This document shows, in pieces, positions 32,052-48,395 of a stretch of DNA of 64,000 bases. The number at the start of each line of letters is the position of its first letter. Within the stretch, counting starts at the first letter, position 1. The notes below the pieces were generated by a model. It ran no database searches and was not told the origin of the DNA. It saw nothing but the letters and a program-made list of their open reading frames with translations. This stretch comes from Candidatus Methanomethylicia archaeon. GTDB lineage: Archaea > Thermoproteota > Methanomethylicia > Nezhaarchaeales > B40-G2. The stretch lies in contig JAPDJI010000025.1 of the NCBI GenBank assembly GCA_029259155.1, forward strand, positions 1-64,000, written 5' to 3'. The position numbers and the translations under genes are program-made.

Positions 32052-32200
32052 GTCATCTTAAGGAACTGAAGAACTCTCCTATAAGAGTCAATTAAGGAGT
32101 TTGTTGATAGTCTCTGAGGCTTAAAGCTGAAGTTCTTTTGGCATTGTTTTGTTTCTTAAAAGAAAAGCTATATATTAAGCCATATGGCTGCCTCTAGCCG

Positions 32201-33313
32201 GTGCTTATGGGCTGCCTCGAGGGACATCTGCCTATTATACTAGGCGGAGATGTAAAGGAATTTGCTTGGGAAGTGACCAACAAGTGTAACTTAAGGTGTA
32301 AGCATTGCTACCTTAACGATGTTGGATCTGAACCTGAGAATGCTCTCTCTAAAGAAGAAGGCTTAGCTTTGTTGGAAGAGATGGCTAAGCTAGGCCCTAA
32401 AGATGTAATGGTTGTGTTTGAAGGCGGAGAGCCCGTTCTATGTCCCTATATCTACGATTACATAGAATATGCCTCTAGACTTGGAATGAGGCCTGTCATG
32501 ACCAGTAATGGTACGTTGATTGACTTGGAGGTTGCTAGGAAGCTTAAGCAAGCTGGCCTCGTAGGTATTTCTATTAGCATCGATGGAGCTACACAAGAAG
32601 TAAACGATGGTATTAGAGGAGTAGGATCCTACAAGAAGGCCTTAGAAGGGTTAAAGGCGTGTAAAGAAGTCGGCATACACTGGAACATAGCGTTCGTGGT
32701 TAACAAATATAACGTCGACCAAGTCCCAGCTATAATAGAGTTAGCCAAGAAACTTTCAAAGCGAAGCCCAAATGACCCCATAACGAGCCCTCCAGGCGTC
32801 TTCCTTTTCCATTATATCCCCTTGGGTAATGGCGCCAAAAATATGCCCGATGCGGAGTTAAGTAAGGAAGAATACTTGGGTTTGCTGGACTATATTTTCA
32901 AGTATAAGGTGCAACATGAAGGTAGGCTTTGGATAAGACCTGAATGCATGCCTCAGTACTGGCCTTTCATAATAGAGGAGTATGAAGTAGAATTCGAACA
33001 GGACTTCACAGCAGATATGATAAGAATGTGTCAAGCCGGTATAAGGCATTGCTGCGTAACAGTGACCGGAGAAGTAACACCATGCCCCTACGTGAGGACC
33101 AGTGCAGGTAACGTGAGGGATGGAGGCTTCCTTAAGATTTGGAGGGACGCGGAGCTCTTTAAGAAGCTTAGAAACCCTCGCAGCTTTCTAAGGGAGCCTT
33201 GTAGGTCTTGCAAATATCTAGAAGTATGTGGTGGATGTAGAGGTAGGGCAGAAGCGCACTTTGGAGACTGCTTTGAAAAAGATCCTTCATGTCCTATTAC
33301 CCCTAAACCATAG
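32201..33313 (+). CDS. Radical SAM/SPASM protein (NirJ/AhbC-AhbD-like)
   Basis: CNLRCKHC, GGEP, and SPASM cysteines CQAG...PCP...CRSC..LEVCGGCRGRA...DPSC. Confidence 0.85.
   Translation: MLMGCLEGHLPIILGGDVKEFAWEVTNKCNLRCKHCYLNDVGSEPENALSKEEGLALLEEMAKLGPKDVMVVFEGGEPVLCPYIYDYIEYASRLGMRPVMTSNGTLIDLEVARKLKQAGLVGISISIDGATQEVNDGIRGVGSYKKALEGLKACKEVGIHWNIAFVVNKYNVDQVPAIIELAKKLSKRSPNDPITSPPGVFLFHYIPLGNGAKNMPDAELSKEEYLGLLDYIFKYKVQHEGRLWIRPECMPQYWPFIIEEYEVEFEQDFTADMIRMCQAGIRHCCVTVTGEVTPCPYVRTSAGNVRDGGFLKIWRDAELFKKLRNPRSFLREPCRSCKYLEVCGGCRGRAEAHFGDCFEKDPSCPITPKP
32507..32561 (+). repeat. 55-bp perfect direct repeat, copy 1 (copy 2 at 33635-33689)
   Basis: AATGGTACGTTGATTGAC...GCTGGCCTCG is identical in both radical SAM genes. 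A second identical 22-mer follows at 32571-32592 and 33699-33720. Confidence 0.9.
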
Positions 33314-43582: not shown

Positions 43583-45112
43583 ATGATGGATACGAGCCAT
43601 ATCCTACTCCAAACGATCCTTATACCCATGGCTTTCTCGGTGATAGCTCTTGTCGCCGGTAGGGCAATGGGTAAGAACACAGGCTGGCTGGTCTTCGCGG
43701 TACTGGCTTACGTGACAGGCCTCTTAGCTTATGTGACATTGTCGCTTCCCTACATACCTGAGGGCCTCTTAAAGGCTGAGTATTACTGGGGGCCTTACAT
43801 AGGCAATTTCACCCTGATAGCTGATGGCCTCAGCGCACCCATCGCTTTAACCATAGCCCTCCTATGCGCACTGATCGCGATATATTCGATAGGATACATG
43901 GAACACGAACACCGCCTAGACGCCTACTTCTCGCTATACCTCCTATACGCGGCCGGCATGATAGGGACAGTACTTGTCACCAACTTAGCAGCCTTCTTCC
44001 TCTTCTTCGAGTTGATGCTAATACCCTCCTGGGCTATGATAGGTATCTGGGGTACTGGCCCTAAGGAGAGAATAGCTTTCAAGTACTTTATGTTCACTGA
44101 AGCTGGTGCACTATCCCTGCTAGGCGGAATCGTGGCCACCTACTTCCTTACAGGGACATTTGACGTAATGGAAATGGCCACCAAGCTTTCAGCCTACGAT
44201 GTAAACCTACTCACGGTCATAGTAGTAGCCATGTTACTAGGCCTGCTCGTTAAGATGGCAATATTCCCCCTACATACTTGGCTTCCTGACGCCCACGCAG
44301 AAGCCCCTACACCTATAAGCGCCCTATTATCTCCAGCCATGATAGGTATAGGCGGTTACGCTGTAATAAGGATAGCATACACCGCTTTCCCCATGGTAAT
44401 GGCTAACTGGCCCTTCGTAATAGGCCTAGCCACTCTCGCAGTAATAACTATGGTCTACGGAGGAGTTATGGCCTTAGCTCAGGACGATATTAAGAGGCTC
44501 CTCGCCTATTCCAGTATAAGCCAGATGGGTTACCTACTCTTCGGCATAGCTTCGATCTCAGTGTTAGGGTTAGCTGGCTCTGTGCTCTTCTACGTAAATC
44601 ACGGCTTATGTAAGGCAGTCCTCTTCATGATGTCAGGGATACTGATCCATAGTTTCCATACGAGAAGCATTAGCAAGTTCGGCGGCTTAGGACCTAAAAT
44701 GCCACTAACCGCTACAGCGTCCCTCATAGCTTTCCTAGGTTTAGCAGGGACTCCTCCCATGGTTGGTTTCTGGGGAGAGGTATTCATATTTGCAGGTTCC
44801 ATGCACACCGCATTTGCTAGCTTAGCAGGCGTGGACGTTGCGAGAGTCCTGGTAACCGCCATAGCCATCGTCGGCTCTGCTCTAACTGCGGGCTATGGGT
44901 TATGGACTATTAGGAGAGTTTTCTTCGGCCAACTGAACCCCTATGTTAAGGACGCTAAGGAGGGATCGCCGTTAATGGTGGCCCCCATCATGATATTAGC
45001 GGCATTAGCTGTCATTATCGGCGTCTACCCAACGATCATAACGGAGCCCGCGGCTTCATGGGCTTCAAGGCTAGTCGAAGTAATAGCTGCCCTTGCAAGG
45101 ACATCAATCTAA
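43583..45112 (+). CDS. nuoM: Antiporter-like subunit M
   Basis: FFELMLIP, PLHTWLPDAHAEAPT, KRLLAYSSISQMG. Confidence 0.92.
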   Translation: MMDTSHILLQTILIPMAFSVIALVAGRAMGKNTGWLVFAVLAYVTGLLAYVTLSLPYIPEGLLKAEYYWGPYIGNFTLIADGLSAPIALTIALLCALIAIYSIGYMEHEHRLDAYFSLYLLYAAGMIGTVLVTNLAAFFLFFELMLIPSWAMIGIWGTGPKERIAFKYFMFTEAGALSLLGGIVATYFLTGTFDVMEMATKLSAYDVNLLTVIVVAMLLGLLVKMAIFPLHTWLPDAHAEAPTPISALLSPAMIGIGGYAVIRIAYTAFPMVMANWPFVIGLATLAVITMVYGGVMALAQDDIKRLLAYSSISQMGYLLFGIASISVLGLAGSVLFYVNHGLCKAVLFMMSGILIHSFHTRSISKFGGLGPKMPLTATASLIAFLGLAGTPPMVGFWGEVFIFAGSMHTAFASLAGVDVARVLVTAIAIVGSALTAGYGLWTIRRVFFGQLNPYVKDAKEGSPLMVAPIMILAALAVIIGVYPTIITEPAASWASRLVEVIAALARTSI

Positions 45113-46354
45113 GAATCCTTTAAGCCCTTTTTGAACTACTTTAAATTCAAGTTTCCCGTAAACCCCGTCGTACCCCGGGATTATCCTATACCTCCCCTCT
45201 CTTACCATGATTATGGCTATAGCCACTTCCCTAGGGGCTGCTTGTATTAGTTCCTCGTAGCTGGCGTGTAGTAGTACGTTGTACTCTGAACCTAGCTTCA
45301 CAACTAAGTTTTCATATAGCTCTCCTACTACCTTGGACTGAAGAGACTTCATACCTCCAGGCTTCAAGGCAGCGGATATGACTTCGTGGAGTGGAAGTAC
45401 CTTAACGTAGTTCATGTTTTTCTCTGGTTTAAAGCCACTTGGCCTATCAGCCAGCTCCTCCACTCTATCCTCCACTCCTTTCGTTAAAGGCTTGCTGCAT
45501 ACAGGACATCTATAATTTAGTTTAGAGGCTTCAGCTGGGGAGAGGGGGCCTACACCACATTCACGATGCCCTGAGTAATGGTATTTTCCATACTCCGGCG
45601 GTACCTCGAGCGTGGCCACCTTACCTGTCCTGATGGCTTCAATTAACTCTTTGTAGCTAAGTTTACTTAGGTTAAAAATAGTGCATTCTCTACCGAGCCT
45701 CCAAGGCCATGGAGAGTGGCTATCTGAAAAGCTCAATAAAGTGAAGCGGTCGAGCCTACTTACCCTCCAGTTCATGGCTGGATCGCTACTAAGCCCTGTT
45801 TCAAGGGCATAGATGCGCTTAGCCATGTCTTCGTAGCATTCTTCAATACTATCCACTCCGCTGAAGGAACCGAAGATCGACCTCCACGGCGTCCATGCAT
45901 GGGCAGGAAACACAAGGCAGCGATCGTCAACTCCCAGTATTGTTTCTACCAGCTCTGAAGGTTTGATGGTTAGCGTAGGCCTGCCGTCACGTTCAAGGTC
46001 TCCATACCTCGATAACGCCTCACCCAGCTGCTCAGCTACCTCTAAACTAGGCATGAATATAACGTGGTGTATCCTCTTAACTCTGCCTTCATAGAGGTGG
46101 ACGGTTTCCACCTCCGCCTCGACGAGAAACAGCACATTTTCGTCAGCCCCTCTTGCTTTATAGAGGCCTGTACCGTCTACTTCTTCTAAGGCTAAGCTTA
46201 ACTGGGAGAGCCAGGCTGGATGTAGAGCATCTCCTGTACCTAATAGGTTTAAGCCCTTGATCTTGGCGAAGCCTACTAAGTCAAGGGGGTTCATCTTCTC
46301 GCTTGTAGCCCTTGAGAAGGGACTATGTAGATGTAAATCAGCGTAAACTTTCAC
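45104..46354 (-). CDS. Endonuclease Q family (PHP domain) DNA-repair nuclease
   Basis: ADLHLHSPFSRATS, GTGD, PAHAWTPW, ETGLSSD, SDSHS, GKYH..GHR.C, CPVC, PGYDGVYG. Confidence 0.9.
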   Translation of the reverse strand: MKVYADLHLHSPFSRATSEKMNPLDLVGFAKIKGLNLLGTGDALHPAWLSQLSLALEEVDGTGLYKARGADENVLFLVEAEVETVHLYEGRVKRIHHVIFMPSLEVAEQLGEALSRYGDLERDGRPTLTIKPSELVETILGVDDRCLVFPAHAWTPWRSIFGSFSGVDSIEECYEDMAKRIYALETGLSSDPAMNWRVSRLDRFTLLSFSDSHSPWPWRLGRECTIFNLSKLSYKELIEAIRTGKVATLEVPPEYGKYHYSGHRECGVGPLSPAEASKLNYRCPVCSKPLTKGVEDRVEELADRPSGFKPEKNMNYVKVLPLHEVISAALKPGGMKSLQSKVVGELYENLVVKLGSEYNVLLHASYEELIQAAPREVAIAIIMVREGRYRIIPGYDGVYGKLEFKVVQKGLKGFLD

Positions 46355-46446: not shown

Positions 46447-47220
46447 TCAGCTCTTTATGCTTTTACGAGCAAACACCAAGTACCCGGTATGGCCTACCAT
46501 GAACGTATGAGGCCTCGTAGCGCCCACCTCAACCTTCAACTTTCTGAGGAGACATTCAATAGCCTCTATATCCACGAACCCTTCTCTCCTAAGAGCTTCC
46601 ACGGTCTTTTCTACTTGATTAATTGTTGGACTAAAACTAGCTAGGCCTCCACCTCCCTTTAACGCTTCGTAGGCATGAGGTACAACATCCCATGGGGAGG
46701 CTAGGTCCAAGACTACGGCGTCCACCTCTTTCTCCTCGATCCCTTCGGTCAGATCTTTATTCTTGAGCTCCACGTAGTCAAGCAACCCTACCCTAGCGAG
46801 GTTTTTTCTCGCCACCTCTAACACGTCGCTCCTTACTTCGTAGCTGTAAACTTTACCTGTAGGTTTAACGAAGAAAGCTAAAGCTGAAGCTAGAGCCCCA
46901 CTCCCTGTCCCTCCCTCGACTACTCTTGAACCGGCTCCTATGCCGAGCCTAAGTATTATCAACGCTATATCCTTATAGTATAGTATCTGTGTCCTCCTCG
47001 CTAGCTTAGCTATGTAGTCGTAAATCGTGGGCTTAAGAGCTATGAAAGACACCTTCAAATTACTTTCCACGCTGACCCCGTAAGGCCTGCCTATTAGCTC
47101 TCTTAGCTCCACGTAGCCTTTATGCGTGTGAAAGCTCCTATCCTCAACTTTAACTAAGTACCTTCTACGCTCATCGAGGTATAGGAGAACATCATCTCCT
47201 TGCTTAATTTCCTCCGTCAA
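46447..47220 (-). CDS. trmI: tRNA (adenine57/58-N1)-methyltransferase
   Basis: R.TQILY.KD, VEGGTGSG, LDL..PW, FSPTINQ, HTGYL. Confidence 0.93.
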   Translation of the reverse strand: MTEEIKQGDDVLLYLDERRRYLVKVEDRSFHTHKGYVELRELIGRPYGVSVESNLKVSFIALKPTIYDYIAKLARRTQILYYKDIALIILRLGIGAGSRVVEGGTGSGALASALAFFVKPTGKVYSYEVRSDVLEVARKNLARVGLLDYVELKNKDLTEGIEEKEVDAVVLDLASPWDVVPHAYEALKGGGGLASFSPTINQVEKTVEALRREGFVDIEAIECLLRKLKVEVGATRPHTFMVGHTGYLVFARKSIKS

Positions 47221-47285
47221 CTTACACTCCTCGCCTGAAGTTTAATACGAGCTCTTCCCCTTTTATGCTAGGGGGGGTTCTAAAC

Positions 47286-48395
47286 TTGAAGTTTAGAGCT
47301 GACGCACGCTTACTTAAGAGCCCTTCAGTTAAGGAAGCCTTGCTTTATGAACAGTTGAGTGGAGGTAAAGTTAGATGTAATACTTGTGCTAGGAGATGTG
47401 TAATACCTATCGGGTTTAGAGGTTTTTGTAGGACGAGAGTGAATGTGAATGGGAAGCTCTACACCATAGTTTATGGAGATTTAAATGCCGTGGAGTCTAG
47501 ACCAATAGAAAGCCTAAGGCCTTTAGGCCTAGGCCTATAAATAAAGCCTTTCTTTCACTTCTGGCCAGGCTCCACGGCCTTAACCTTCTCCACTTGGTCC
47601 TGTAATTTATACTGTTTGTGGTGTCAGAACTGGCACCTCAGCAAGGAAGAGCCTAACCCCTATCAACCAAACTATGTGTCTCCTGAAAGGCTCATATTTA
47701 TGGCTAAGAGGGCTGGCGATGAAGGCCTCTGCATCTCCTTCACTGAGCCCTTAATGCTCTTCGAGTATAGCTTGGAGGTCTTTAAGTTAGCTAGGCAGCA
47801 AGGCCTCTACAACACCTACGTGAGTAACGGCTACCTTACCTTGGAAGCTTTACGAGAACTCAAGAAGGCTGGCTTAGATGCCATAAAGATAGATGTTAAA
47901 GGAGACCGCGAAGTGTATAGACGTTTCTGTGCAGCCCCAAGCGATGAACCTGTATGGAGTACAGCTAGAGAAGCTAAGAGACTCGGGCTCCACGTAGAAA
48001 TCGTTAATTTAATGGTTACAGGCGTAAATGACCAAGAGGAGCAGGTAAGGGGGTTGGTTAGGAGACATTTAAAGGAGCTGGGGGCTTACACCCCCCTCCA
48101 CTTCACTAGGTATTACCCTGCATTCAAGTTTAATGCTCCTCCAACAAGCGTATCGAAGCTTGAAGCTGCTTATAAAGTGGCTAAGGAAGAAGGTCTACTC
48201 TATGTATATTTAGGCAACGTTCCTGGCCATCGTTATGAGAACACCTACTGCCATGAATGCGGACAGCTAATCATTAGGCGGGAAGGTTTCAAGGTATTGG
48301 AATGTAGATTGGTTAAGGATAACCGTTGTCCCAGCTGTGGAGCAGCTATCCCCATAGTGGGAAGGTATGTCTCAAAGCCCTGGCGCTTCCTTTAA
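47286..48395 (+). CDS. AmmeMemoRadiSam-type radical SAM enzyme, intron-interrupted: join(47286..47510,47541..48395), ~359 aa
   Basis: Exon 1 has C..C.RRC.I..G.RGFC.TR.N..G ending ESRPIE. Exon 2 starts IKPFFHFWPG and continues SCNLYCLWCQN (CxxxCxxC), EP, SNGY, PLHFTRYYP, YVYLGNV, TYCHECG, CPSCG. Both parts are in the same frame. Confidence 0.88.
47511..47540 (+). other. 30-nt bulge-helix-bulge (BHB) mRNA intron
   Basis: Central helix ATAG(47505-08)/CTAT(47535-38), 3-nt bulges AAA(47509-11) and AAA(47539-41), intron stem GCCTA-A-GGCC-TTTA-GGCC-TAGGC. Cutting after the 2nd bulge nt removes the in-frame TAA and restores PIE-IKP. Confidence 0.85.

Follow-up and report, generated by a model that had tools for sequence, protein, structure and literature searches.

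The bulge-helix-bulge (BHB) motif of archaeal introns, as defined in an excerpt of PMC6379350, consists of two bulges of three nucleotides (nt) separated by a helix of four base pairs (bp), and relaxed forms, written hBH and HBh', exist beside the strict one. For messenger RNA the known substrates of the archaeal splicing endonuclease are few: excerpts of PMC7714728 and PMC10485636 name only cbf5, whose intron lies within the open reading frame (ORF), and HVO_1309, whose intron lies in the 5' untranslated region, and hold that more probably remain. In the excerpted part of Yokobori 2009 (PMC2738675), splicing is confirmed for no gene besides cbf5, and earlier predictions of introns are cited, for a rudivirus and for further genes of Sulfolobus; a survey of Sulfolobus circular RNA confirmed no new mRNA intron (PMC3326292). 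In our literature search, outside which supplementary files lay, no report was found of BHB introns in radical SAM, aIF5B or uS5 genes. Here we analyse a 30-nt insert, positions 47511-47540, in a radical SAM gene (47265-48395, forward strand) of a Candidatus Methanomethylicia archaeon of the phylum Thermoproteota (GenBank assembly GCA_029259155.1). The gene lies in a 64,000-nt stretch of contig JAPDJI010000025.1, hereafter the window, which belongs to contig C7 of a 1.55-Mb assembly of 47 contigs. We argue that the insert is very probably an archaeal BHB intron of the radical SAM pre-mRNA, which EndA would excise and RtcB would join. The motif, its conservation and covariation, the selection acting on both exons and the presence of the enzyme genes are all observed below.

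An insert at a conserved motif of a radical SAM gene

As DNA, the gene reads as two ORFs in the same frame, 47265-47540 and 47616-48395 (91 and 259 amino acids, aa), just as had been described in a first-pass annotation that a model made of the window. Exon 1 (47265-47510) comprises 82 codons from the ATG at 47265, ends in ...SRPIE and matches positions 4-57 of the TIGR04337 profile (AmmeMemoRadiSam radical SAM enzyme); exon 2 (47541-48395) comprises 284 codons and a stop, begins IKPFFHFWPGS and matches profile positions 60-336. The insert separates the PIE codons from the IKP codons about 20 codons upstream of the radical SAM cluster motif CxxxCxxC, which the translation gives as CNLYCLWC at 47601-47624, and it contains an in-frame TAA at 47538-47540; all of these features are on the forward strand. 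When the TAA is read through as X and the insert is kept as 10 extra residues, the product reaches 223.4 bits with TIGR04337 (cut-off 220), and it matches Pfam Radical_SAM with 76.9 bits. This agrees with the family named in the first-pass annotation, and the insert and BHB sequence that it reported are present at these coordinates; its figure of about 359 aa for the spliced ORF, on the other hand, becomes 82 + 284 = 366 aa when counted from the ATG at 47265. The 30-nt insert occurs once in the genome, the next best matches being no longer than 18 nt.

In the transcript, the exonic strand ATAG (47505-47508), invariant in all seven distinct sequences of the family, can pair with the intronic strand CTAT (47535-47538) to form a central helix of 4 bp. 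The first strand is followed by an AAA bulge at 47509-47511 and the second by an AAA bulge at 47539-47541, which reads A(A/G)A among the family variants. Between the two lies an inner hairpin (47512-47534) built of 5 bp (47512-47516 with 47530-47534), a bulged A at 47517, 4 bp (47518-47521 with 47526-47529) and a TTTA loop (47522-47525), with a folding energy of -10.8 to -14.8 kcal/mol across all variants. The insert thereby displays the defining arrangement, a helix of 4 bp between two 3-nt bulges on opposite strands. Beyond this helix, on the exon side, the only pair is A47504-T47542; with an inner helix of 5 + 4 bp and an outer helix of one A-U pair, the motif departs from the strict hBHBh' form and fits just the relaxed HBh' form. 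All the elements listed in the first-pass annotation (the ATAG/CTAT helix, the AAA bulges, the hairpin and a relaxed outer helix) are present in the sequence. In each bulge EndA cleaves between the second and the third base, a rule by which the cuts would fall after 47510 and after 47540, although the A runs at either junction leave four cut registers with an identical spliced product. The join of PIE to IKP that the annotation derived from this rule reproduces the motif of the intronless orthologues.

How much weight should such a small structure carry? When the local 40 nt are folded by themselves, the structure of minimum energy (-15.6 kcal/mol) comprises the central helix, the bulge and the hairpin and nothing else. 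For any one fixed position and length, a 4-bp helix combined with an inner stem of at least 5 bp is expected by chance with a frequency of about 1e-4, as estimated from 41,883 matches over approximately 4.3e8 position-length pairs in the same genome, and the site of the insert was set independently, by protein homology.

The search for orthologues covered 40 relatives, the window's family and 62 genomes of the class, as well as 50 loci from named genome records and 80 from metagenome contigs. Throughout the window's family, in four of four genomes, exon 1 is open and ends in PIE, an insert of 30, 30, 29 or 31 nt stands at the same codon, and exon 2 begins with IKP. The genomes with 29 and 31 nt carry their two exons in different DNA frames; lengths that are not multiples of three rule out a tolerated peptide insert. 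Within the class, 25 of the 62 genomes searched have an orthologue, and frames that cover exon 2 alone occur only in the four family members, the other 21 having frames of at least 341 aa. Among the metagenome loci, six of 80 carry the same insert type, including three further stem variants, and 73 are uninterrupted. Intronless orthologues, Culexmicrobium and Methanomethylicota records among them, have an uninterrupted PIEIKP and read ESRPIEIKPFFHFWPGS, which is the predicted spliced product. Given four genomes and six metagenome contigs, an assembly artefact is an unlikely source of the insert.

The searches also returned sequences of other kinds. Ten paralogue matches that had been flagged for internal stops turned out to be N-terminal overruns of the alignment or other non-introns, none of them with an insert at the PIE-KP site, and a match in the window with one TAG (32156-32713) is an alignment overrun beside two intact radical SAM/SPASM genes. 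A homologue in a metagenome-assembled genome of Spirochaetaceae (L095) has in-frame stops at and near PIE-KP and no insert, and looks like a case of ordinary decay.

Inheritance, selection and covariation

A second intron type occurs in the same gene family. In the metagenome locus L141, on the branch of the family that reads PIEKKP, a 29-nt insert (L141:1171-1199) has its cut 2 nt downstream of the window's site, adopts a textbook local fold of -19.7 kcal/mol and splices in silico to PIEKKP. A phylum-wide search with exon 2 of L141 covered 401 genomes, of which 63 gave a match. Twenty loci were examined: 12 are interrupted (including the window's own), seven are contiguous and one, L282 in genome G125, gave no match to the motif pattern. 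The 11 newly found genomes with an interrupted gene are spread over three other families of the phylum (two, three and six genomes) and have introns of 20-30 nt, at loci L280, L281, L283-L290 and L294. Taken together with L141, all 12 second-type sequences give NPIEKKP on excision, in open frames of 329-424 aa.

In a gene tree of 70 proteins, two changes of intron state are needed. One intron-bearing clade holds the window's family and its metagenome relatives (7 rows, support of 91 in the Shimodaira-Hasegawa-like approximate likelihood ratio test, SH-aLRT) and the other holds the second intron type (12 rows, SH-aLRT 90); for these 12 rows the tree used the unspliced frame at the single junction residue, which accordingly stands as R or I in place of K. 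Two nearby gains, each inherited since, would be the simplest reading of this tree. For each of the 19 distinct intron-bearing rows, removing the insert at its bulges brings back both frame and motif. The tree also groups the enzyme of the window's family with Chloroflexota (the starred branch, 96) and not with other genomes of its own order, which suggests a transfer in one or other direction. Two genomes of one family (G118:C5:50152-50913 and G069:C66:6536-7297) have 621-aa frames around a radical SAM match that starts at query residue 19, and these may represent a fused form of the enzyme.

An important question is whether the two halves of the gene still function as one. A palindromic insert might simply have broken the gene, in which case the RNA would never be repaired and the pieces would be inert or would make two polypeptides; the DNA does read as two ORFs of 91 and 259 aa, and splicing at this site is predicted from sequence alone. 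We compared the last 55 codons of exon 1 and 286 codons of exon 2 in 21 sequence pairs each. For each exon and in all 21 pairs, the proportion of nonsynonymous differences (pN, 0.03-0.26) is far below the synonymous proportion (pS, 0.15-0.89), and the ratio of the corresponding rates (dN/dS) is 0.05-0.21 where dS is not saturated, and 0.057-0.137 in exon 2. Such values indicate that both exons are under purifying selection; a dN/dS near 1 in exon 2, which the first-pass annotation had named as the sign of pseudogene decay, is not what these comparisons give. Against a dead or divided gene, then, stand exons that remain open and strongly constrained across lineages with nearly saturated synonymous sites, an insert whose geometry stays constant while its stem changes by compensatory substitutions, and a distribution over two tree clades (7 and 12 rows) that points to long retention. 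A separate C-terminal protein would moreover fare badly, as the earliest possible restart codon in exon 2 is the TTG at 47616, inside the CxxxCxxC motif, so that two of the cluster cysteines would be lost. We therefore regard a broken or split gene as very improbable, even if it is the best of the alternatives to an intron.

Compensatory change was assessed in an alignment of seven distinct intron sequences from the window's family and its metagenome relatives. The proposed structure leaves 95.9% of the cells paired, as opposed to at most 46.9% in controls with slid partners; the four unpaired cells stem from the register of the bulged A in two sequences. In the inner stem, five of the nine pairs have changed on both sides, and the covariation score was reached by none of 500 shuffles. 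Variable inserts that keep the structure by compensatory changes were what the first-pass annotation suggested looking for in orthologues, and such inserts, of 29-31 nt and at the same codon, are found.

Could the hairpin be conserved for a reason other than cleavage, for example as a protein-binding or attenuation element, with the enzyme being made in some other way or not at all? The covariation within the window's family is indeed confined to the hairpin part. No Rfam family matches this hairpin: there was no hit at gathering scores in the window and none at E-values up to 1 in 47400-47650. A structural or regulatory element of this kind, however, would leave unexplained why frame and motif are restored in 19 of 19 distinct sequences, and why a 4-bp helix with two 3-nt bulges has been retained. 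It would also leave unexplained a pattern in the second intron type (n = 12), where the first pair of the central helix covaries between exon and intron: the wobble base of the Ile codon is C opposite an intron G in six sequences and A opposite T in the other six, which is direct support for the exon-intron helix in that type. We give this explanation slightly less chance than a broken gene, and both very little.

Interrupted genes and splicing enzymes in the genome

We scanned the whole genome for BHB motifs whose removal rescues a reading frame, a step that the first-pass annotation had proposed. The 109,931 raw motif matches were reduced to 2,903 that join open frames and then to filtered lists of 136, 224 and 119. 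The scan is noisy and its entries are mostly ordinary gene boundaries; only junction peptides that looked conserved by eye were followed, so others may have been missed or wrongly dismissed. Five candidates held up, namely the window gene and four more: cbf5, the gene for the translation initiation factor aIF5B, the gene for the ribosomal protein uS5, and a second radical SAM gene. The genome accordingly holds at least five protein genes that carry a predicted BHB interruption.

In cbf5, a 23-nt phase 1 intron on the reverse strand (G000:C2:28850-28872; L189:1350-1372) lies between GHGGTL and DPKVTG; the exons cover NF003280 positions 3-66 and 68-322 with a split codon between them, and 26 of 30 relatives' loci have an intron of 19-29 nt at this site. 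The aIF5B/IF-2 gene holds a 29-nt intron, also on the reverse strand (G000:C2:13183-13211; L188:2183-2211), that has the full hBHBh' form with an outer helix of 6 bp; its exons cover NF003078 positions 5-44 and 45-592, and 21 of 30 relatives' loci, some of them in a different family, contain an insert at this position, with varied stems. A 28-nt BHB intron on the forward strand interrupts the uS5 gene (G000:C13:32002-32029; L187:1002-1029), whose exons cover NF003125 positions 6-66 and 67-207; among 30 relatives' loci, 14 share it, with lengths of 22-34 nt and in two families of the order, and 16 lack it. Applying the cut rule gives contiguous profile positions in all three genes. The automatic BHB fit disagrees with the homology gap for two loci, L231 (aIF5B) and L268 (cbf5).

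The second radical SAM gene is unrelated to the first. Its 23-nt intron on the forward strand (G000:C3:38302-38324; L300:802-824) lies about six codons upstream of that gene's CxxxCxxC motif, and removing it restores ...WYGG-IATADC... before CPLKCVFC. This intron is present in two of 27 loci, in this genome and in one of a neighbouring family (26 nt); the gene is uninterrupted in the other 25 orthologous loci, including those of the three closest relatives. In cbf5, aIF5B, uS5 and the second radical SAM gene alike, the intron stems differ between genomes. Both radical SAM introns (47511-47540 and C3:38302-38324) stand no more than about 20 codons upstream of the iron-sulphur (Fe-S) cluster motif.

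These four genes bear on one further alternative, in which ribosomes would cross the insert by programmed bypassing or frameshifting and the RNA would never be spliced. In bypassing of the T4 gene 60 type, take-off and landing codons match and a stop codon stands just after the take-off site. Here the insert is indeed a short hairpin-forming element within an ORF and is flanked by similar A-rich words, yet we consider bypassing the least probable of all the explanations, since a hop from ATA 47505-47507 to ATA 47541-47543 would give PIKP and not the conserved PIEIKP, the would-be take-off codon has no stop after it, the BHB cut rule accounts exactly for every one of the inserts, of 20-31 nt and in several different flanking contexts, and four other genes share the motif with unrelated flanking codons.

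The genome also encodes candidates for the enzymes that splicing would require. There are two genes of the EndA family, one for a protein of 183 aa in whose translation, on visual inspection, Tyr, His and Lys occupy the presumed positions of the catalytic triad, and one for a beta-like protein of 209 aa that lacks the His; RtcB is encoded by a single gene. According to an excerpt of PMC6379350, relaxed motifs are efficiently removed just by two-subunit and epsilon2 enzymes.

On the reading that 47511-47540 is a spliced intron, the transcript would fold so that exonic ATAG pairs with intronic CTAT, and the 4-bp helix, the two flanking 3-nt bulges and the closing intron hairpin would present a relaxed HBh' motif with nearly no outer helix. 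A two-subunit EndA would then cut after 47510 and after 47540, and ligation by RtcB would give ...PIE+IKP... and an enzyme of 366 aa, with the 30-nt intron being released, probably as a circle; cleavage, ligation and the exact cut sites are what we infer from the comparisons above. In unspliced RNA, translation would stop at the TAA at 47538-47540, which lies upstream of CNLYCLWC (47601-47624), in keeping with the first-pass annotation's remark that such a product ends before the Fe-S motif. Its wider proposal, of a spliced mRNA other than cbf5 whose enzyme would depend on the tRNA-splicing machinery, gains support from the conserved insert, the compensatory stem, the intact exons, the restored motif and the presence of two EndA genes and RtcB. 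The feedback switch that it considered conceivable, like a part for the enzyme in modifying nucleic acids, is speculative.

Several considerations weigh against this reading. Splicing here is a prediction and its support is comparative, and the genomes compared are all metagenome assemblies. With its single outer A-U pair, the relaxed motif would need an EndA of broad specificity. The fold of the surrounding 81 nt is ordinary when set against shuffled sequences (z = -0.82; 40 of 200 are at least equally stable) and lacks the 4-bp central helix, so the site would not be picked out by folding energy alone. Neither the central helix nor the single outer pair shows any variation in the window's family, which means that covariation there speaks neither for nor against them, and for the central helix the backing in this family is geometry alone. 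Archaeal translation can start on nascent transcripts, so ribosomes could reach the TAA before splicing takes place. Finally, the tRNA genes offer a control of mixed outcome. ARAGORN flagged 14 of 42 tRNA genes as intron-bearing, some of them spuriously; among the 11 introns in the length range of our scan, the cut rule is exact for one (tRNA-Ala) and shifted by 2 for another, and the remaining ones have no strict motif or have motifs at inconsistent boundaries. This control is weak because ARAGORN boundaries are not BHB-based.

As for the surroundings of the gene, it is divergent from a TrmI/GCD14-type methyltransferase gene on the reverse strand (46447-47220; PF08704, 167.3 bits), as the first-pass annotation had it, the neighbour being of the GCD14 family. 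A 416-aa ORF, 45104-46354 on the reverse strand, adjoins this TrmI-like gene and has no Pfam match at E-values of 0.001 or less. The genome contains two further paralogues of the radical SAM gene, on contigs C15 and C5. AMMECR1 (C1:117847-118392) and Memo (C2:17806-18624) are encoded on contigs other than that of the radical SAM gene; neither partner gene lies beside it, and the adjoining listed ORFs matched other families or none. Adjacency as a criterion for an AmmeMemoRadiSam system is our own reading of the family name.

Relation to known splicing systems

Introns in the genes of aIF5B, uS5, Cbf5 and two radical SAM enzymes are present in this genome. It is conceivable, though we would sooner bet against it, that BHB introns in mRNA are a regular and vertically inherited feature of core genes in parts of Thermoproteota, perhaps marking out a set of genes gated by EndA and RtcB; the gating in particular is speculative. 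If true, the production of certain Fe-S enzymes and of the translation machinery would be tied to the capacity for RNA processing, and the two gains 2 nt apart, as well as the second radical SAM intron near CxxxCxxC, would reflect selection for a gate and not chance.

Our analysis adds new candidate cases to the short list of interrupted archaeal mRNAs: a radical SAM gene with two intron types over four families, as well as aIF5B, uS5 and a second radical SAM gene, with introns that are conserved over many genomes and that covary. Annotation pipelines would probably label such genes as broken or split. This is of consequence for universal translation genes, those of aIF5B and uS5 among them, and whenever the metabolism of uncultured Thermoproteota is reconstructed. 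An excerpt of PMC12700198 lists a cultivated relative of this group. Experiments can now approach the old question of what makes archaea retain introns in their protein genes.

Looking beyond archaea, HAC1/XBP1 splicing in eukaryotes is a spliceosome-independent excision of a short intron from mRNA, with ligation of the RtcB type in animals and a change of frame that decides which protein is made. The likeness to our case lies in a short mRNA intron that would be excised without a spliceosome, in an RtcB-type ligase and in a frame change that would decide the protein product; unlike it, HAC1/XBP1 relies on the endonuclease Ire1, has a different recognition motif and is regulated by stress. XBP-1 and RtcB are mentioned in the excerpted abstract of PMC8718801.

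Within archaea, three systems invite comparison. The tRNA introns, as described in the excerpt of PMC6379350, share the definition of the motif and the presumed enzymes, whereas the intron in the window would be recognised in a protein-coding transcript, with no tRNA body to aid recognition. The HVO_1309 transcript of Haloferax volcanii (excerpts of PMC7714728 and PMC10485636) likewise contains an mRNA BHB motif that is cut by the tRNA-splicing endonuclease; its intron, however, lies in the 5' untranslated region and leaves the frame unbroken, and its host has a homodimeric EndA of strict specificity, while in the radical SAM gene the ORF itself is broken and translation of unspliced RNA would terminate. 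The third is the crenarchaeal cbf5 intron (excerpt of PMC2738675). The two differ in gene and lineage, ours being a TIGR04337 radical SAM gene interrupted just upstream of CxxxCxxC in a different lineage, and they differ in that splicing of cbf5 is experimentally confirmed and splicing of the radical SAM transcript is predicted from sequence. On the other hand, both are short, relaxed BHB-type introns within an ORF, in hosts with two-subunit EndA; in both, removal restores a conserved motif, and both have a patchy distribution with gain and loss.

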